The notes under the pieces were generated by a model. That model worked only from the letters and a program-made list of their open reading frames with translations. It was not told the origin of the DNA and ran no database searches. From Acetobacteraceae bacterium (lineage in GTDB: Bacteria; Pseudomonadota; Alphaproteobacteria; Acetobacterales; Acetobacteraceae), in contig JANXRN010000330.1 of NCBI GenBank assembly GCA_025352995.1, positions 1 through 51,008 of the forward strand: a stretch of 51,008 bases of DNA, given 5' to 3'. Position numbers and translations under genes: made by a program. Shown piece by piece: positions 15,951-49,525 of this stretch; the first letter of the stretch is position 1, and each line of letters begins with the position of its first letter.

Positions 15951-15965
15951 GAACATATCATGAAC
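15951..15965. promoter_or_regulatory. Alphaproteobacterial SOS (LexA) box GAAC-N7-GAAC
   Basis: GAACATATCATGAAC matches the direct-repeat consensus exactly. It sits in the divergent intergenic region and overlaps a TGATATGTT extended -10-like element for the minus-strand gene. Confidence 0.6.
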
Positions 15966-16127: not shown

Positions 16128-16775
16128 ATGAAGCACAACGAAGTATGGCGCGCACTTGACACTCTGGCGGAGGAGCACGGCCTCTCACCATCTGGACTTG
16201 CGAAACGCGCGGGTTTGGACGCGACCACTTTCAACCCATCAAAACGCACCATGCCTGACGGACGCGCACGTTGGCCCAGCACGGAAAGCGTGGCCAAAGC
16301 CCTGGACGCAACAAATGTCTCGATTGATGCGTTTGCCGCCCTGGTAAGCGGCGCCAGGACCCTTCCCGGCGGCGGGCGGGCGAATACCGTACGTCGCATT
16401 CCGCTCATCGGGTTGGCCCAGGCCGGTAGCGAAGGTTATTTTGACGACGGTGGCTATCCGGTTGGCGGCAGTTGGGATGAAGTGAGCCTACCCGAAGTGG
16501 GGGATCCACATGCCTATGCGTTGGAAATCAGCGGCGACTCGATGGAACCAGTATTTCGTGACGGCGACCTTGTGATCGTCTCGCCCGCCGCACCACTCCG
16601 CCGCGGCGATCGGGTCGTGATCAGGATCGGAACTGGCGCAGTCATGGCCAAACAACTTGCCAGGCGCTCTGCCCGCCGCGTGGAACTTCGCAGCCTCAAC
16701 CCACTTCACCCCGACTACAGCTTTGATCTGAGCGAGGTCACTTGGATCCATCGGATCATTTGGGCCAGTCAATAG
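16128..16775 (+). CDS. CI/LexA-like repressor: XRE-type HTH plus S24 autopeptidase domain
   Basis: N-terminal HTH (LSPSGLAKRAGLDATTFN) and C-terminal S24 motifs (EISGDSMEP, and a Lys in VMAKQL). GAGGA RBS. Confidence 0.85.
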   Translation: MKHNEVWRALDTLAEEHGLSPSGLAKRAGLDATTFNPSKRTMPDGRARWPSTESVAKALDATNVSIDAFAALVSGARTLPGGGRANTVRRIPLIGLAQAGSEGYFDDGGYPVGGSWDEVSLPEVGDPHAYALEISGDSMEPVFRDGDLVIVSPAAPLRRGDRVVIRIGTGAVMAKQLARRSARRVELRSLNPLHPDYSFDLSEVTWIHRIIWASQ

Positions 16776-18864: not shown

Positions 18865-19809
18865 CTACGGACTCCGCGTGATCGCATCTACCTCGGTGAG
18901 CTCGGTAGGGGTTAGGACCCAGTTTCCGGCAGCCGCGTTTTGAACGACCTGTTCAGGCTTCGTCGCCCCCGCGATAACGCTGGCTACCGGCTTTTGGGAA
19001 AGCAACCAACTGACGGCGAGTTCCAATGCGCTGTGCCCCCGGGTTTCAGCGAAATCGATCAGTTTTTCGCTTATTTGCCAATTGCGATCGCTCAAGTAGC
19101 GATCTGCGAGACGTTGGGTCTGTGTTAATCTAGCCCCCGCAGGCATTGACGCATTGCGGCGATATTTTCCCGTAAGAAGTCCACTTGCCAGGGGAAAATA
19201 TGGCAACAAGCCCATTCCATAGGCCCGTGCCGCCGGCACCATATCCTTTTCAGCATCACGAACAACCAGTGAGTACTCGTCCTGGCAGGAGACGAAGGGG
19301 TTGAGGCCATCGGACTTCGCCGTCCACTGAGCTTCCACCATCGCCCAGGCAGGGAAATTTGAACATCCGACGTAGCGTACTTTGCCAGCCCGGATGACAT
19401 CATCGAGCGCCCGCAAGGTTTCGTCGATCGGGGTGAGTTGATCGTGACGATGCTGCTGGTAAAGGTCGATATAATCCGTCTTCAGACGACGCAAACTAGC
19501 CTCAACCGCGGCCACAATATATCGCCGCGACGCGCCTTGTTTTGTGCCGTCATCGGACATTGGCATTGCAAATTTGGTTGCAAGAACAATGTCTTTTCGC
19601 ATCGTTCCTAAAACCTCACCCAACAAGTCCTCGGAGCCCCCGCGTTCGCCGTAAACGTCTGCGGTATCGAATAAAGTGATGCCTTTATCGAACGCCGCAT
19701 GAACCACTGCACGTGTGGCTTGCAGATCCAGGCGACCGCCAAAATTATTGCAACCCAACCCAATTGCCGAGACACGCAGGCCAGACTTCCCGAGATTGCG
19801 AAGTTCCAT
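18865..19809 (-). CDS. Aldo/keto reductase
   Basis: LGCNNFGG, FDTADVYG and SRRYI motifs. Confidence 0.9.
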   Translation of the reverse strand: MELRNLGKSGLRVSAIGLGCNNFGGRLDLQATRAVVHAAFDKGITLFDTADVYGERGGSEDLLGEVLGTMRKDIVLATKFAMPMSDDGTKQGASRRYIVAAVEASLRRLKTDYIDLYQQHRHDQLTPIDETLRALDDVIRAGKVRYVGCSNFPAWAMVEAQWTAKSDGLNPFVSCQDEYSLVVRDAEKDMVPAARAYGMGLLPYFPLASGLLTGKYRRNASMPAGARLTQTQRLADRYLSDRNWQISEKLIDFAETRGHSALELAVSWLLSQKPVASVIAGATKPEQVVQNAAAGNWVLTPTELTEVDAITRSP

Positions 19810-43399: not shown

Positions 43400-43662
43400 A
43401 CGATCTTTCCCCTCCCTGAAACGCGAAGCGGCGTGCCGGTTTCCCGCACACGCCGCTGATCATGTAAAGGTATATAGTCCAAAATGGGGCAGATGGGAAG
43501 TTATTTTTCCTACTAACGTGTATTTTTTATTATATTCGTGAGACGGGCAGCTAACACGGCCCGATCACGTTCCATCGCGGAACTGCCGAGACAGCTGGCC
43601 AGGCACACATAATATAGACGGCAGATTCCGCCAAACGGCAGGCATTTATTTTTAAATACATA

Positions 43663-43696
43663 GAGATATAGGCAATATCTCACGAGATAATTATCT
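43663..43696. promoter_or_regulatory. Two adjacent palindromes in the AT-rich control region upstream of the terminase gene
   Basis: GAGATAT-aggca-ATATCTC (43663-43681) and AGATAATTATCT (43685-43696) share a GAGATA core. Confidence 0.4.
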
Positions 43697-43867
43697 GCCT
43701 TGAGTTGCCGAGCACTAAGGATCTAACGACAGCATCCTGAACAAATTGATTTTTTAGTCTTTATAGTGCGTTATAATTTTGCTCGTTCAGCTTAGTCGCC
43801 CTCGTTGGCACATTGTTGCCGTATTAGGCTGCCAGTAAACTGTGGCGCTGTAGTGTTAGGAGACAGG

Positions 43868-44362
43868 ATGCCTTTGTGTGCTCACCATGCTATCCTATTT
43901 GGACTCCTGCTTGTGGCACACGGAGATGCTTTTGCTGCTGAGGGCTCTCAGATTGGCGGAGGAGCGGGAAATAGCGCTGTTGCATTGCACCAGCCGCCGC
44001 AAACTGCGCGGAAGCCAAGTGAAAAGTTTGCGACGAGCGCACCTGCCACAACGGTGCACAAATCTGGATGGGCGCAGAGCGGCGTGGCGTCCTGGTATGG
44101 TGGCGAACAGTGGCAGGGCAAACTAACAGCAAGCGGCGCGCGCTACGACCAGAACGCACTCACGGCCGCACATGCCACACTTCCGATCGGGTCACGGGTG
44201 AAGGTAACTGTCGCGGGCACTGACCGCACCCTTGTTGTGACTATCAATGACAGGCCGGGAACCAGGACGAGGATCATCGACCTTTCGCGCGCGGCCGCGA
44301 AGGAACTTGGCATCCTGAGCCGGGGCGTAGCGCGGGTAAACCTTGTCCGGCTCGACTCCTGA
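43868..44362 (+). CDS. RlpA-like double-psi beta-barrel lytic transglycosylase with signal peptide
   Basis: The ATG at 43868 follows AGGAGA. Sequence GVASWYGGEQWQGKLTASGARYDQNALTAAHATLPIGSRVKVT...INDRPG. Confidence 0.8.
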   Translation: MPLCAHHAILFGLLLVAHGDAFAAEGSQIGGGAGNSAVALHQPPQTARKPSEKFATSAPATTVHKSGWAQSGVASWYGGEQWQGKLTASGARYDQNALTAAHATLPIGSRVKVTVAGTDRTLVVTINDRPGTRTRIIDLSRAAAKELGILSRGVARVNLVRLDS

Positions 44363-44396: not shown

Positions 44397-45281
44397 TTGG
44401 AGGCCTGCTTGAAAGTTGTTTTGCCCGGGGATGCCCGGGTACGGTTGGTCGATGGTTTCGAACAGGTTCAGCGGCTTAGAGTTGGGTCTGAACTTGCAGG
44501 ACCTGGTGGGGGCTGCCGGATATTATCGACCAATCGTTGCCCACCACCGGCGAAATGCGTTGTGTTCGGGGCAGGCAGCCTGTTCCCCAACGGGCCTGAA
44601 GCGAAAATGCGGGTTGCGCCGGATACGCTCGTAGGGTTTCAGATGCTTGGTGGTCAGTGGCAATTGGCCGCCGCCGCGGGCTTGGTCGATGGCTTGAATA
44701 TCCGCTTTGAAAATTGGCCACGCCGACTTGCAGCTTTTGCGATCGAGGTTGACTGCGAAATAGCGATGAACGGGTGCTGGATCGCCGCCCTGGGGACAGC
44801 CGATCTGCGTTCCGGGACTATCTGGGGTGGAACCTCGATTGCGCGATGGCTTCACCGTCCCCGCCACCAGGACGACTTCGAACGGCAAGAGCAATCGCCA
44901 GTGCGGGTGATGGCGGAGGGGCATTGGGCTGAATTGCTGAGTTCAACGCATATAAGTGACGATATTATCATGCATTTTCGTATCGCAAGCCAGGCGCGCT
45001 GGATGCGAGTCATCAGTCCAGCGTTAGTTTCGCCCGGCCAGGCGGGTGACGAAGTTGAGCAGCGCCGGTTCGGTATCGCGATTATTGCGCTGAGCATCGG
45101 TGAGCACAGAATAGCCTTGGATAGCAACGCCTTGGCCTCGGGTTTTTATCCCGTCGAAGGCGATACGCCGCGAAATTGGCGGTGGACAGACGGGAATGGC
45201 TTGATCGTGCTTGATCCAACGCCATCGGAACAAGTGTTTCTAATTCGGTTCACCAATTGGCACGAAATGTTGAAATTGTAG
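44397..45281 (+). CDS. Orphan, degenerate Hint-like domain protein (possibly a truncated gene)
   Basis: TTG start only; the first in-frame ATG is at 44607. The protein begins MEAC, so the Hint-type Cys is at residue 4. CVVFGAGSLFPNGPEAKMRVAPDTLVGF and AAAGLVDGLNI parallel PIRINAGALGDNIPSADLFVSPEHMMVL and AAHSLLNGATI in the Hint protein at 1-1387. C-terminal RWTDGNG motif. Confidence 0.5.
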   Translation: MEACLKVVLPGDARVRLVDGFEQVQRLRVGSELAGPGGGCRILSTNRCPPPAKCVVFGAGSLFPNGPEAKMRVAPDTLVGFQMLGGQWQLAAAAGLVDGLNIRFENWPRRLAAFAIEVDCEIAMNGCWIAALGTADLRSGTIWGGTSIARWLHRPRHQDDFERQEQSPVRVMAEGHWAELLSSTHISDDIIMHFRIASQARWMRVISPALVSPGQAGDEVEQRRFGIAIIALSIGEHRIALDSNALASGFYPVEGDTPRNWRWTDGNGLIVLDPTPSEQVFLIRFTNWHEMLKL

Positions 45282-45323: not shown

Positions 45324-45359
45324 AAAAAAACCCCGCTGCCAAGAGACAGCGGGGTTTTT
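45324..45359. terminator. Bidirectional rho-independent terminator
   Basis: A7-CCCCGCTG-ccaagaga-CAGCGGGG-T5 lies between convergent genes. Confidence 0.8.
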
Positions 45360-45379: not shown

Positions 45380-46933
45380 TTAACTGAAGAATCGAGTCGT
45401 ATCGGTCGTCGTTACATTCAAGAATTTCAACCTGGTGCCGTCTGACAAGGTAACATCCACATTAAACCTGCCTCCGGCCACCGACGCGGAACTCGAAAGG
45501 CTAACCGCAGGCGCTGCTAGAGTTCCGCCTGACGCGTAGCCAGCGGTCAGTCTAAAGACATCGATACCGACGACGAAATCACCAATCGTATCTGACCCAC
45601 CTGCCGCATAAAGTTGGTAGGTATCTGCATTGGTTGTGGACGCTTCGACCGAACCGTGCTGTCCGTAGACGAACGCCGAACCAGATCCCAATTGGATGGT
45701 ATTTGCGCCACCCGCGCCACCTAACACAGTCGTAGAACTGCCTGAAGCACCAGTCCGGAAAGTGTTCCCCGGCGCATTAAAGCCGCCCAAACCTGCCAGC
45801 ACGTCATTACCGCCACCGGCGATTAGCAGATCTCCACCCGCCATAGCGAATAGTTGGTCATCGCCTGCACCACCTATCAGGGTGGTCACGGCGTTGACAG
45901 TGCTGGTCAGCATCACACCGCCACGGGCGCCGGCGGTAAACATGCCCCTTCCGCCAAACACCGTGGTTCCACCAGTGCCGCCTGTAACGGTTTCCGACCC
46001 AGTGTTGGAGCCGGCCAGCACCACCACGTCCGACGCGTTCGGATTAATGAAGGCATTGCCGCCGTTCTGGATGTAGATAAGCCGCGAGTTGGACACTGTT
46101 GGGCTGGCGCCTGGCACTGTCGTCGTAATCGTCAGGGCCGCCGTTGCACCGGAGATACTCACCACGGCCGGAACAGTACTTGACCCTGCCGCAACTGTGG
46201 CGCTCGAAAGAGCAATAACCACGGTGCCACTCTGCGCAACCACATTCGCGCTGGTGCTGCTATTTGTGTTAATGTTGATCAAGGAGTTGTTACCAATGGT
46301 GACATTGGAAGTTCCGACCGTCGCATCGATATATGCCCGCCCATCGCCAAGCGACTGCCCGCCGGTAAGGGTTGCACTGGTCGACGAGCTGGTACCCGAG
46401 TTGCCGATGTAGCTGTTACCACCCGTAAGAAGCACGCTGCCGCTGCTCGACCGGTTAACGTAAGCCGTATTGCTGCCGCCGCCGGCGATCAAGGTGGATG
46501 GGACCGTGGAGCTGATGACCGCGACAGTTCCGCCGGACGTATCCGTATTCAAAACTTGGTTAATGTTGTTCGACAATACGCCCAAATTCGCGACACCCGC
46601 TTGGGTGGCGGTGATTGTTACAGGGACTGTCGAACCGGTCGTGGATGCCACCGTCGAGCTTATCGTGGCGGCGTTTATGGTCTGGACCACAAACGCGGAC
46701 GCGATGGTCACCGATGTCACTGACCCGCTGACAGTTGCCGCCCGCGTTGCAGGAACCGTGCTGATGGGGACGGTCGAGTTTGGATTGAAACTCTGAATAT
46801 TCAACGACCCAGAGCTAACCTGTGACGTTAGAGCGGCTAGAGCGCTCGTGGCTATTGAGTTACTGGGATCAGCCGACACCGGCAACGAAATAGTGATCGT
46901 TCCTACAGTCGCGACGATAGTTGAGTCAGCCAT
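45380..46933 (-). CDS. Repeat-rich secreted protein with RTX-type calcium-binding repeats (probable T1SS substrate)
   Basis: No signal peptide and a Thr/Ser/Gly/Ala/Val-rich N-terminus. Contains GGAGDDQLF and GGGNDVLAG nonapeptides, plus a DTIGDFVVGIDVFRL motif near the C-terminus. Confidence 0.65.
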   Translation of the reverse strand: MADSTIVATVGTITISLPVSADPSNSIATSALAALTSQVSSGSLNIQSFNPNSTVPISTVPATRAATVSGSVTSVTIASAFVVQTINAATISSTVASTTGSTVPVTITATQAGVANLGVLSNNINQVLNTDTSGGTVAVISSTVPSTLIAGGGSNTAYVNRSSSGSVLLTGGNSYIGNSGTSSSTSATLTGGQSLGDGRAYIDATVGTSNVTIGNNSLININTNSSTSANVVAQSGTVVIALSSATVAAGSSTVPAVVSISGATAALTITTTVPGASPTVSNSRLIYIQNGGNAFINPNASDVVVLAGSNTGSETVTGGTGGTTVFGGRGMFTAGARGGVMLTSTVNAVTTLIGGAGDDQLFAMAGGDLLIAGGGNDVLAGLGGFNAPGNTFRTGASGSSTTVLGGAGGANTIQLGSGSAFVYGQHGSVEASTTNADTYQLYAAGGSDTIGDFVVGIDVFRLTAGYASGGTLAAPAVSLSSSASVAGGRFNVDVTLSDGTRLKFLNVTTTDTTRFFS

Positions 46934-47206: not shown

Positions 47207-47581
47207 TCACTCCTGGTCGCGTAAAGATTTGTTACTTTCCCGAGCAAGGCGCGTGGCGGTGCGCAGGAGAAACGCCCGGTCCTCATCACTACAGGCGCGA
47301 TAGAGCCGTAACAAGGCGAGTTCCACCGCACCTTCGGCCGCTGCATCGGCCGCAGACTCACGCGAACCGTCCACAATATAAGCGACCGGCACCCGGAGAA
47401 TCGCTGCAACCTTCGATAGATTGCCGCGCACCTGCCCCGCACGATCGGTTTCCCATTGAGCAACCGCGCTGCGGCTAACCCCAACCGCTCGGGCTAAGTC
47501 TCCTTGGGTCATTCCGAGGGCTCGGCGGGCATTGCGGATACGTGCGCCCGCGGGCGGGTCGAGATCATGTGTGTCGGTCAT
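47207..47581 (-). CDS. XRE-family HTH transcriptional repressor
   Basis: IRNARRALGMTQGDLARAVGVSRSAVAQWE. Confidence 0.85.
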   Translation of the reverse strand: MTDTHDLDPPAGARIRNARRALGMTQGDLARAVGVSRSAVAQWETDRAGQVRGNLSKVAAILRVPVAYIVDGSRESAADAAAEGAVELALLRLYRACSDEDRAFLLRTATRLARESNKSLRDQE

Positions 47582-47684
47582 GCCATTGTTTTAAGCAAGC
47601 CGAACTAACATCGCAATGTTTTTATTATTGACTTTGAAAGTTATTTCATTTAACTTTTGATTTAGCAAAATCACGAGGTAATTC

Positions 47685-47993
47685 ATGCCCGAGCCACTGA
47701 TCTGGTCGTTGCCCAACGACCTGCAACTCCGCCGGATGCGCGCCGAGGGTGCGTGCTGGGACGATATTGCCACCACGCTTCGGGTGAGCCGTTGGTCCGT
47801 CATTGAACGAGGCCGGAAAATCGGTGCCTACAAAAACCCTCGGGTCGCAAGCGGCCCCATCACGCCCGTCGCCAGCGATTCTGGCCGCGAGCCGCTCCCG
47901 GCGGGACACGCGGCAAGCTGGGGCGCGCTCATTGCCCACACAACTCTCCACGGACAATCCTATCCGTGGCCACCTTTGCCGTTTGGGGGCTAA
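47685..47993 (+). CDS. GcrA-N-terminal-like HTH protein (102 aa)
   Basis: GAGG RBS. WSLPNDLQLRRMRAEGACWDDIATTLRVSRWSVIERGRKIG aligns by eye with the GcrA N-terminus (W..e....L..lw..G.S...IA..L.gvtRnAViGK.hRLG). Confidence 0.5.
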   Translation: MPEPLIWSLPNDLQLRRMRAEGACWDDIATTLRVSRWSVIERGRKIGAYKNPRVASGPITPVASDSGREPLPAGHAASWGALIAHTTLHGQSYPWPPLPFGG

Positions 47994-47996
47994 GTC

Positions 47997-48479
47997 ATGG
48001 CTGCATTATCGAACGATAACGCCCGGCTGGACGCAGCCACCGTCATTCAGCGTCTTGAAGAATGTGGGCGCACCCTACTGGCACTGCCCGCGGGCGGGTA
48101 TTCCACCCGCATGCGCGGCTTCAATCTCGACGTCGTAAGGAGCGCCGTGGAGGCAAATGGGTGGGAAGGTGGAAAGTTACGGCCATCCATTCCAAGTGCG
48201 AGCCACATCACCCGCATGGACGATGCATTGCGCTGGGTGCAGTTGATCCCGCAGGACCGTTATGTGCTGCGGCGCATTGTTGGGGCACGCAGCTTGGTCA
48301 GCCCGCTGAACGACAAGCATCTTTTCCCATGGCGCCGCCTGGGCACGATGCTTGGCGCCGACCACAAAGCGATCCAAAGGTGGCATGGCCAGGGTATCGA
48401 CCTGATCGTCGCAGGCCTAAATGGGTTTGCGCCCGGCCAAATGAAACGGGCCGAGCGGGTGAGCGCAACCCGAATGTAG
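47997..48479 (+). CDS. Hypothetical regulator with a sigma-70 region-4-like C-terminal HTH (160 aa)
   Basis: Starts 3 nt after the upstream stop. DRYVLRRIVGARSL...PWRRLGTMLGADHKAIQRWHGQGIDLIVAGL follows the region-4/LuxR-type pattern. Confidence 0.45.
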   Translation: MAALSNDNARLDAATVIQRLEECGRTLLALPAGGYSTRMRGFNLDVVRSAVEANGWEGGKLRPSIPSASHITRMDDALRWVQLIPQDRYVLRRIVGARSLVSPLNDKHLFPWRRLGTMLGADHKAIQRWHGQGIDLIVAGLNGFAPGQMKRAERVSATRM

Positions 48480-48544: not shown

Positions 48545-49525
48545 ATGACCGTGACATATATCGACGGAATTAACGTGCCTGATTTGACTGCTATCGCTGA
48601 GATTGCGGTTGCCCTCAAACCCTTCATTCGGACAACGCCGATATATGAGACGATTATAGACAATGATATCAGAGCAGTATTTAAATTGGAGATGCTGCAG
48701 GCCAGCGGGACCTTCAAGGCGCGGGGGGCTTTCTCCAATCTGCTGGGATTAAGCGACCCTCAGGCCCAGGCCGGTGTGACCTGCGTGTCGGCGGGCAACC
48801 ACGCGGTGGCGGTAGCCTATGCCGCAATGGTGATGGGTATTTCGGCAAAGGTCGTCATGTTGGCGACCGCAAATCCGGCCCGGGTCGCGCTATGCCGCGC
48901 ATTCGGCGCTGATATTGTCATCGAGCCTGACGGCGCGCAGGGCTTCGCCCGGGTCCGCCAGATTGAGAGCGACGAGGGGCGGTTCTTTGTGCATCCGTTC
49001 AATGGGTATCGGACAATTCTCGGGACCGCGACACTTGGCGCCGAATGGGCGCAGCAGGCGGGCAGGCTTGATGCAATCGTGTTGCCAATCGGTGGTGGCG
49101 GACTAGCCGCAGGGGTGGCAACGGCCGTCAAGCTTCTACAACCGGACATCGAGGTGTATGGCGTTGAACCTGCCGGGGCGGCGTCGATGGCGCGCAGTTT
49201 TGCTGAGGGCGGGCCGATCAAGATGGGGCCAATGCATAGTATCGCCGACAGTCTCATGGCGCCGCATACGGAGGCTTACAGTTATGGGCTATGCCGGCGT
49301 GCGATCGATCATCTAACGACCGTCGATGACACGATGATCCGGGATGCCATGCGGTTCCTGTTTGATGGCTTGAAGCTCGCAATTGAGCCGGCGTGTGCCG
49401 TTGCGACGGCCGCAGTGCTTGGGCCCCTCCGCGAGACCCTATCGGGCAAGCGGGTCGGCGTGCTGTTGTGTGGCAGCAACACCGATGCGACGACGTTTGC
49501 GCACCATATTGGGAACATGACCTGA
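48545..49525 (+). CDS. PLP-dependent threonine/serine dehydratase family protein
   Basis: LQASGTFKARGA (PLP lysine), SAGNHA and PIGGGGL motifs. Confidence 0.85.
   Translation: MTVTYIDGINVPDLTAIAEIAVALKPFIRTTPIYETIIDNDIRAVFKLEMLQASGTFKARGAFSNLLGLSDPQAQAGVTCVSAGNHAVAVAYAAMVMGISAKVVMLATANPARVALCRAFGADIVIEPDGAQGFARVRQIESDEGRFFVHPFNGYRTILGTATLGAEWAQQAGRLDAIVLPIGGGGLAAGVATAVKLLQPDIEVYGVEPAGAASMARSFAEGGPIKMGPMHSIADSLMAPHTEAYSYGLCRRAIDHLTTVDDTMIRDAMRFLFDGLKLAIEPACAVATAAVLGPLRETLSGKRVGVLLCGSNTDATTFAHHIGNMT

Follow-up and report, generated by a model that had tools for sequence, protein, structure and literature searches.

An XRE–small protein–DUF6362 cassette as a candidate switch of a myovirus-like, gene transfer agent-like element in Acetobacteraceae

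Introduction

What controls a long run of phage-type structural genes that lies between host genes, with no recognizable integration or replication functions of its own? The question is raised by a 51,008-nucleotide stretch of DNA from an Acetobacteraceae bacterium (assembly GCA_025352995.1, contig JANXRN010000330.1, positions 1 to 51,008; hereafter, the window), in which a myovirus-like structural operon lies about 4 kb from a compact cassette of three genes, namely, an XRE-family repressor gene on the minus strand and, divergent from it, a gene for a small protein followed by a gene for a DUF6362 protein. An initial annotation of this DNA had suggested that the latter two products are an activator or antiterminator pair for the structural operon, held off by the XRE protein, and had pointed to GafA and GafY/GafZ, the activators of gene transfer agents (GTAs), as possible relatives. 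We find that the three genes are a conserved unit whose control region carries recurrent regulatory elements, and that the structural operon possesses a promoter of recognizable anatomy. On balance, the cassette probably acts as master switch for this myovirus-like cluster, which lacks an integrase, appears to be inherited vertically, and is widespread in Acetobacteraceae. Its likeness to the GafY/GafZ system appears to be one of architecture and function rather than of descent.

Results

Three genes, one conserved unit

Three open reading frames (ORFs) fill positions 47207 to 48479, exactly where the initial annotation had placed them and at the lengths it gave (Table 1), with 3 nt between the stop codon of the small gene and the DUF6362 gene. 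The minus-strand product had been described as an XRE-type helix-turn-helix (HTH) protein, and so it proves: it matches Pfam HTH_3 (PF01381) with E=2.6e-11 and 43.8 bits against a cut-off of 23 bits, as well as PHROG transcriptional repressor families. It has no S24 peptidase domain.

The XRE gene, the small gene, and the DUF6362 gene form one conserved unit. Among 88 DUF6362 loci (individual loci are cited by L numbers), tblastn detects a small gene in 82 and an XRE homologue in 79, and the order and orientation are invariable across the set: XRE(-), then small(+) and DUF6362(+). Ratios of nonsynonymous to synonymous substitution (dN/dS) are 0.014–0.054 for the XRE gene, 0.11–0.23 for the small gene, and 0.06–0.15 for the DUF6362 gene; each of the three is a genuine gene that purifying selection maintains.

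Relatives of DUF6362 occur in at least 385 species genomes, the best 80 of which all belong to Acetobacteraceae or Rhodospirillales, with Rhodopila, Acidisphaera, and Limobrevibacterium among them. The family amounts to 2,477 clusters at 90% identity (E<=1e-3), or about 958 representatives at 50% identity. A tblastn search of 50,697 phage genomes with DUF6362 returned no match, and we found no mention of DUF6362 in the literature. Many cassettes stand alone amid housekeeping genes, for example, beside dnaK-dnaJ or pta.

Individual loci vary in instructive detail. An IS21-family element (IstA/IstB) sits between the small gene and the DUF6362 gene of L006 (7486–9812) and splits the operon, while L112, L126, and L062 hold an extra ORF of 138–154 residues between a short middle gene and the DUF6362 gene, with the consensus ...LLAxLxxxGLVGRAEALxAFL... 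The DUF6362 gene of L024 (Limobrevibacterium gyesilva contig59, 21–1909) directly follows a 417-residue P-loop RepA/AAA-like ORF, and the domain therefore also occurs in this second context, probably one of mobile-element type. Long representatives (235–276 residues) were considered as natural fusions of the small protein with DUF6362; most look like over-extended start calls, none is convincing, and P0350 looks like a frameshifted read-through.

Table 1. Coordinates and strands of the features discussed, numbered along the window
Feature	Position	Strand	Remarks
XRE-family repressor gene	47207–47581	-	124 aa; HTH at residues 12–69 plus C-terminal tail of ~55 aa
Small regulator gene	47685–47993	+	102 aa
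DUF6362 gene	47997–48479	+	160 aa
Divergent control region	47582–47684		103 bp, 30% GC; architecture kept in 73 distinct loci
Candidate -35 hexamer TTGACT	47628–47633	+	rightward promoter of the two-gene operon
Operator-like palindrome AAGTTA-N7-TAACTT	47638–47656		covers spacer and candidate -10
Candidate -10 TAACTT	47651–47656		part of the operator-like palindrome
Inverted repeat ACTTTGAAAGT	47631–47641		the ACTTTgAAAGT repeat of the initial annotation; degraded in close relatives L009, L010
Distal CTAAC half-site	47605–47609		adjoins XRE start
Myovirus-like structural operon	20215–43399	-	~23 kb; presumed target
P_terL promoter and leader	43418–43511	-	single promoter of the structural operon
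A-tract AGGAAAAA	43511–43504	-	P_terL
-35 TTCCCA	43499–43494	-	P_terL, weak
GCCCCA spacer element	43490–43485	-	P_terL
-10 TATATA	43476–43471	-	P_terL
-10-like CATGATCAGCGG (CATGAT element)	43464–43453	-	P_terL
Leader hairpin	43457–43427	-	precedes TerL ribosome-binding site
T-tract TCGCGTTTC	43426–43418	-	directly after leader hairpin
RlpA-like DPBB gene	43805–44362	+	divergent from TerL
294-aa gene	44397–45281	+	weak Hint_2 match
Terminator-like hairpin	45326–45359		15 bp stem with A and T runs
RTX-like 517-aa gene	45380–46933	-	Ser/Thr/Gly-rich, RTX nonapeptide repeats
Aldo-keto reductase gene	18865–19809		host flank
PALP enzyme gene	48545–49525		host flank
215-aa S24 protein gene	16128–16775	+	
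LexA-type box GTTC-N7-GTTC	15951–15965	-	upstream of the 215-aa S24 gene

A divergent control region with an operator-like palindrome

The AT-rich region of about 100 bp noted in the initial annotation has 30% GC in a window of 57% GC. We counted its cis elements in 73 distinct intergenic regions, anchored on TTGAC and compared with shuffles; the loci share descent, and the counts are not independent events. TTGAC itself is found in 72 of them, compared with 12 in shuffles. The motif GTYA-N7-TAAC recurs in 53 (shuffles, 0.3), mostly at an offset of 12–13 from TTGAC and often as the perfect palindrome GTTAGT-N3-ACTAAC. Within the 51-kb window, GTTA-N7-TAAC exists as a single copy, inside the palindrome that overlies the candidate -10, and this palindrome is the predicted binding site of the XRE protein. 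Both the TTGACT hexamer and the inverted repeat on which the initial annotation had focused are indeed present; the repeat, however, is not the conserved palindrome, which is the adjacent AAGTTA-N7-TAACTT. A CTAAC half-site at the far end of the region, retained in 72 of the 73 loci (shuffles, 11), is possibly a second operator or part of a leftward promoter.

A further element may link the cassette to the DNA-damage response in many lineages. GTTC-N7-GTTC, the LexA box of Caulobacter (PMC9578287 Table 1), appears in 37 of the 73 regions (shuffles, 0.2), mostly at an offset of 35–36, some 16 nt ahead of the start codon. Its distribution differs by context, with one box in 11 cassettes adjacent to a structural cluster compared with 36 in the 62 others, and it is absent from the control region of the window lineage.

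A predicted sigma-region-4-like fold in the DUF6362 protein

The 160-residue protein matches Pfam DUF6362 (E=3.4e-10) and phrog_6836 (E=9.5e-18). Its AlphaFold2 model, built from an alignment of 121 sequences (pLDDT 76, pTM 0.71, core above 87; a model from 20 sequences reached pLDDT 43 and was not used), predicts an N-terminal helical part and a C-terminal HTH domain at about residues 68–141 that resembles sigma region 4. The Foldseek list against the Protein Data Bank (PDB) is dominated by sigma factors, none of them significant (E>=0.87), and the ~70 residues at the C-terminus can be superposed on isolated domains of sigma region 4: 3vfz with probability 0.90, TM 0.73, and 2.7 Å; 2h27, sigma-E region 4 on -35 DNA, with 2.3 Å; and also 3vep, 6ido, and 5fgm. 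Neighbours in BFVD are small phage proteins annotated as Sigma70, ECF sigma, Sigma70_r4, or DUF1492 (probability 0.99–1.0, TM 0.4–0.6, best E=4e-3, identity 9–18%).

The early suggestion that this protein ends in a sigma-region-4-like HTH therefore holds at the level of fold class in the model, with non-significant E-values, and not in Pfam sequence models, where neither Sigma70_r2 nor Sigma70_r4 matches at E<=0.1. Over the full length, superposition is poor (TM 0.2–0.35, rmsd 12–25 Å), so that the combination of region 2 and region 4 that defines extracytoplasmic function (ECF)/group-4 sigma factors is not seen. Chains of Q21 and Q-lambda are missing from the top 50 Foldseek PDB matches, and the only PDB match of the DUF6362 sequence profile is a small-terminase HTH, at E=0.57.

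The small protein and its C-terminal motif

On its own, the 102-residue protein of the window has no match in Pfam, PHROGs, or NCBIfam. Across the family, an N-terminal Myb/GcrA/HTH_23-like HTH at about residues 5–47 (W..D..L..R.R.EG..W..IA..L) is joined in the alignment of homologues by the C-terminal motif REPLPAGHxxSWGxLxxxTxLxGxxYPxP, and identity is still 47–49% in distant stand-alone loci. The family profile finds Myb repeats at E=0.004, and the DNA-binding domain of GcrA lines up with it in register (7ye1_G, E=0.017, residues 2–65; 5yiu, E=0.028, residues 4–48). Taken individually, 14 homologues give weak Pfam matches to HTH_23 (7/14), GcrA (4/14, about 0.01), and Myb (2/14), all below the family cut-offs. 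The best score against GcrA (PF07750) is 16.9 bits compared with a cut-off of 26.9 and covers the DNA-binding domain only. What remains of the GcrA-like HTH seen by eye in the initial annotation is thus a weak resemblance of the family profile. In 7 of the 14 homologues, residues 5–44 also match positions 53–92 of the DUF6362 model, again below the cut-off, and the HTHs of the two proteins, each of three helices, are therefore related.

A divergent subgroup (L089, L091, L112, L115, L126, L132, and L062) has a middle gene that encodes only 51–68 residues, in which the C-terminal motif alone is retained. This motif, and not the HTH, is the universal part of the small protein.

The structural operon, its inheritance, and its linkage to the cassette

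The presumed target encodes a T4-type TerL, portal, scaffold, DUF4043-type major capsid, tail sheath, baseplate V/J proteins, and two fibres, one with a beta-helix and one rich in glycine. Between the flanking host genes, where several operon ORFs match no family, we found no integrase, excisionase, or replication domain, and the window has no tRNA gene. The capsid family is large, with at least 2,834 clusters (E<=1e-20), the best 120 of which are 78–94% identical and almost all exactly 440 residues long, and the capsid gene is present in at least 557 IMG/VR contigs.

In about 12 of the DUF6362-anchored loci, the 10 kb to either side of the cassette include homologues of TerL, portal, capsid, and sheath, in two arrangements. 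The window type is shared by L001–3 and L013; in the other, the cassette is co-directional and directly upstream of RlpA/TerL (L017, L026, L041, L062, L082, L089, and L091). When loci are anchored on the capsid instead, L089 and L091 read XRE(-), small(+), DUF6362(+), NUDIX(+), RlpA(-), TerL(+), and DUF6362 is found upstream of TerL in 11 of the 14 IMG/VR loci that offer at least 3 kb of sequence there. The L. gyesilva cluster (L090) has no adjacent cassette. This isolate had been considered as a case of an unlinked cassette and cluster, an example now withdrawn: its DUF6362 gene (L024) is non-canonical and in the RepA-like context described above.

The same PALP gene flanks the cassette in L001, L009, L010, and L013, and in these loci the synonymous divergence (dS) of the element keeps pace with that of the host genes beside it, with dN/dS of 0.03–0.23. 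The shared flank and matching dS speak for vertical inheritance. Structural genes without integration or replication functions, vertical inheritance, and purifying selection are among the traits of GTAs and are seen here; another is the packaging of random host DNA in pieces shorter than the encoding cluster. With structural genes only, set between host genes, the element looks domesticated, and it is a candidate undescribed GTA-like element of Acetobacteraceae; we found no description of a GTA from this family in the literature. A Sphagnum virome study reports unexplained 'phage-like contigs' that match Acetobacteraceae genomes (PMC12142844), and these are probably the same cluster.

Anatomy of the TerL promoter and leader

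The promoter P_terL combines a TTGCCC or TTCCCA -35, a GCCCCA element in the spacer, and a TATAWA -10 at a spacing of 17–18 nt. A permissive pattern recovers this architecture in 36 of 55 regions upstream of TerL, and the core pattern is unique in the 51-kb window. The -10 is a good one, and the weak -35 is flanked by phased A-tracts, often in two copies about 21 bp apart as judged by eye; CATGATSGSCGG is kept a few bases downstream of the -10. The CATGAT/ACGATGG sequence presumably resembles the pause element of lambda PR', a likeness that we treat as a lead only. In the window, the leader folds into a hairpin of -30.8 kcal/mol (z=-3.07), a stability that no shuffle out of 200 equals. The hairpin was rejected as an RNA structure conserved across all loci, the median z over 33 leaders being -0.6; it belongs to a subset.

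Two side observations concern regulatory inputs at this promoter. In L026, a LexA-type box, GTTCTGTTTTTGTTC, lies about 30 nt ahead of the -10 of P_terL and overlaps its -35, and the cassette of the same locus has no box; this suggests that SOS input could be wired at the level of either the cassette or P_terL. Separately, a GGAA-W(2-6)-TTCC palindrome lies about 31–32 nt upstream of TTGAC in 13 of the 73 cassette control regions (shuffles, 0.3), including those of L020, L043, L053, and L078, and a sequence resembling it, GGAATTTTTTCC, directly adjoins the -35 of P_terL in L016, L062, L142, and L169. Such elements may be sites of a regulator common to cassette and P_terL. As a shared motif, however, the palindrome was set aside, since its two locations were never demonstrated in the same lineage.

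Neighbouring genes

Between the structural operon and the cassette lie three further genes. The RlpA-like, lytic transglycosylase-like gene is also divergent from TerL in L089–L091 and in IMG/VR loci, and its product may serve in lysis or wall degradation. Hint_2-domain proteins, to which the 294-residue product is linked by a weak match, recur near the cluster in L090 and L091, and the RTX-like gene recurs to the left of the XRE gene in L102 and L127. These two convergent genes are separated in the window by a strong, bidirectional terminator-like hairpin. A small-terminase gene is not recognizable upstream of TerL, either in the window (43400–43804) or in L089–L091.

Beyond the aldo-keto reductase gene, the window encodes a 215-residue protein with a phage-repressor-like N-terminal HTH and a Peptidase_S24 domain with GDSM...K catalytic motifs. 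Because it has no LexA_DNA_bind match, it is not a canonical LexA. A LexA-type box precedes its gene.

Discussion

Analogy to known late regulators

The RogA-GafY/GafZ system of the Caulobacter CcGTA and the fused GafA of RcGTA (PMC9632790, PMC11150451, PMC6363796) share a good deal with the cassette in organization. An HTH protein is followed by a sigma-like protein, co-directionally and under a dedicated repressor at the core promoter, a position that the XRE protein is predicted here to bind. The likeness to RogA-GafYZ extends to the target, a single long operon of head and tail genes with a weak -35, a further element ahead of the -10, and, as a candidate here, a terminator to bypass; to regulators that lie near or far from the cluster; and to a link, predicted here, with the DNA-damage response. 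The protein families, however, differ. DUF6362 is found in place of DUF6456, and a Myb/GcrA-like HTH in place of a DnaA-domain-IV HTH; the repressor here is a plain XRE protein without an S24-like domain; and the target is a myovirus-like operon of ~23 kb, unlike the siphovirus-like 14-kb cluster of RcGTA.

Homology to GafA or GafYZ, which the initial annotation had left to a profile search, is not supported. Using GafA, GafY, and GafZ sequences recovered from a machine-read alignment (Suppl. Fig. 8 of PMC11150451), with a few residues lost, we find that the GafA C-terminus and GafZ are Pfam DUF6456 (3.9e-56 and 9.4e-44), that GafY is a Bac_DnaA_C HTH (2e-8), and that the GafA N-terminus weakly matches HTH_23. 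The 160-residue protein matches DUF6362 and not DUF6456, BLASTP against GafZ gives E=0.8, and none of the 14 small-protein homologues matches Bac_DnaA_C. Comparison by hhalign, with a Gaf profile of only two sequences read by optical character recognition, gives a probability of 0.08% for DUF6362 against GafZ and the GafA C-terminus and 1.3% for the small protein against GafY and the GafA N-terminus; the 3.4% against the GafA N-terminus alone is in register but a generic HTH match. The initial interpretation is partly supported: the cassette is most plausibly a functional and architectural analogue of RogA-GafYZ, built from other, non-homologous protein families.

Similar parallels can be drawn elsewhere. 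Q/BrrG circuits combine a weak -35 and an element in its spacer with a promoter-proximal -10-like element, a terminator, and a long operon (10.1101/2024.11.20.624540), and the same set has been described for GafZ (PMC11150451). With lambda Q, Q21, and Bartonella BrrG, the window appears to share a late promoter with spacer element and early-transcribed -10-like element, a putative terminator in the form of a hairpin and T-tract ahead of TerL, and a single, very long operon. Q21 reportedly contains a fold like that of sigma region 4 (10.1101/2024.11.20.624540). In contrast to the Q systems, two proteins are involved here instead of one, the hairpin with T-tract is not universal, and no Q protein is among the top 50 Foldseek PDB matches. 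GcrA weakly resembles the small protein across its whole DNA-binding domain, yet its C-terminal sigma-70-binding domain has no counterpart here, and Myb/SANT and HTH_23 match equally. Finally, the small phage sigma-like regulators of BFVD (ECF-like, Sigma70_r4, DUF1492) are, like DUF6362, all-helical proteins of 120–170 residues with a sigma-4-like C-terminal HTH; at 9–18% identity, none in the returned table is functionally characterized.

How the cassette may work

The layout of the cassette, its operator-like palindrome, its linkage to the cluster, and the anatomy of both promoters support the proposal of an activator pair held off by the XRE protein, within which we infer activation, antitermination, and the binding of each protein to its site. 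In the off state, the XRE protein would occupy the GTTA-N7-TAAC palindrome over the -10 and silence the two-gene operon, to which a LexA box downstream of the -10 would add SOS control in most lineages, the window excepted. Relief of repression would yield the small protein and the DUF6362 protein together. The pair would then act at P_terL, recruiting or modifying RNA polymerase such that the whole 23-kb operon is transcribed, and in lineages with a leader hairpin it would also carry RNA polymerase past it. Of these proposals, control of the particle cluster by the cassette has, in our judgment, a better than even claim; antitermination as the specific mode of action is doubtful.

Several observations weigh against control of the cluster by such a pair. 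About 85% of the DUF6362-anchored cassettes have no structural gene within 10 kb, and the DUF6362 gene of L024 stands with neither an XRE gene nor a small gene. The HTH is lost in the divergent subgroup, and DNA binding therefore is not the universal role of the small protein. The fold and HTH similarities all fall below significance (E>=0.87 in the PDB, 4e-3 in BFVD, and about 0.02 for GcrA). The hairpin with its TTTYGCGTTTC T-tract is found in only about 10 of 33 distinct leaders, the window included, with weak covariation (compensatory changes in 2 of 8 pairs). A simple promoter and terminator scan called neither this hairpin nor P_terL nor the cassette promoter, and no motif is clearly common to the cassette promoter and P_terL within one lineage.

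Alternative explanations

The resemblance to sigma factors admits a more direct interpretation, in which DUF6362, partnered by the small protein, takes the place of the housekeeping sigma as a genuine alternative late sigma factor of ECF-like type. Full-length Foldseek alignments to CnrH, RpoE, SigW, SigH, and other sigma factors, BFVD matches annotated as ECF sigma, Sigma70, or RpoE homologue, and the precedent of GafA, formerly proposed as an alternative sigma factor (PMC6363796), all speak for it. Yet only the sigma-4 part superposes well, Pfam recognizes no Sigma70_r2 or r4, only a short segment, partly modelled with low confidence, precedes the sigma-4-like domain, and P_terL keeps a sigma-70-type -10 (TATAWA) with a 17–18-nt spacer across loci; we consider a replacement sigma unlikely. 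Far less credible is a role of the two proteins in packaging specificity, as a small terminase and its helper, instead of in transcription. The missing small-terminase gene upstream of TerL and the small-terminase HTH matched by the DUF6362 profile would fit this role, but the latter match is non-significant, the HTH is C-terminal with a sigma-4-like fold and no oligomerization-domain match, and a dedicated repressor with LexA control far from TerL is not normal for terminase subunits.

Other explanations concern the locus as a whole. A divergent repressor and early genes are the classic layout of a lysogeny switch, and the cassette could be the ordinary immunity region of an active temperate phage, its conservation reflecting a successful phage family and not domestication. 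PHROG repressor families and phrog_6836 match its proteins, the IMG/VR contigs with the capsid gene are numerous, and LexA boxes suggest SOS induction. Against this stand the absence of integrase, excisionase, and replication genes between the host flanks and of tRNA genes in the window, the empty search of phage genomes with DUF6362, the prevalence of cassettes alone among housekeeping genes, and the same chromosomal site and PALP flank in relatives whose host genes are 71–92% identical with matching dS. An active temperate phage is thus quite improbable. Conversely, the scarcity of phage genes within 10 kb of most DUF6362-anchored loci and the concentration of LexA boxes in stand-alone cassettes would suit a host stress or SOS module unrelated to the cluster, adjacent to it in some lineages by historical accident. 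This is at least as improbable, given that adjacency recurs in at least two gene orders at capsid identities of 71–94%, that the cassette is directly upstream in most capsid-anchored loci, and that the LexA box over the -35 of P_terL in L026 ties the cluster to the same signal.

Implications

A bolder form of the proposal that the cassette governs the particle cluster can be stated, which we regard as possible though not probable. The cassette would be the dedicated, LexA-wired switch of an unrecognized, family-wide, myovirus-type GTA or other domesticated particle, and DUF6362 would represent a new class of sigma-region-4-like late factors, either a processive antiterminator or a sigma-appropriating activator, with a partner whose universal part is the ~35-residue PLPAGHPxSW...YP motif. 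The predicted operator, LexA box, and late-promoter elements are testable in culturable carriers, such as Acidisphaera, Rhodopila, and Limobrevibacterium.

If true, this would provide a first functional hypothesis for DUF6362 and its small partner, and a widespread phage-derived element of soil and peat Acetobacteraceae would become a candidate new GTA. It would also be the third independent invention, after GafA/GafYZ and BrrG, of a repressor, an HTH plus sigma-like pair, and a long particle operon, such that the control logic of RcGTA, CcGTA, and BaGTA would have evolved again with unrelated proteins.

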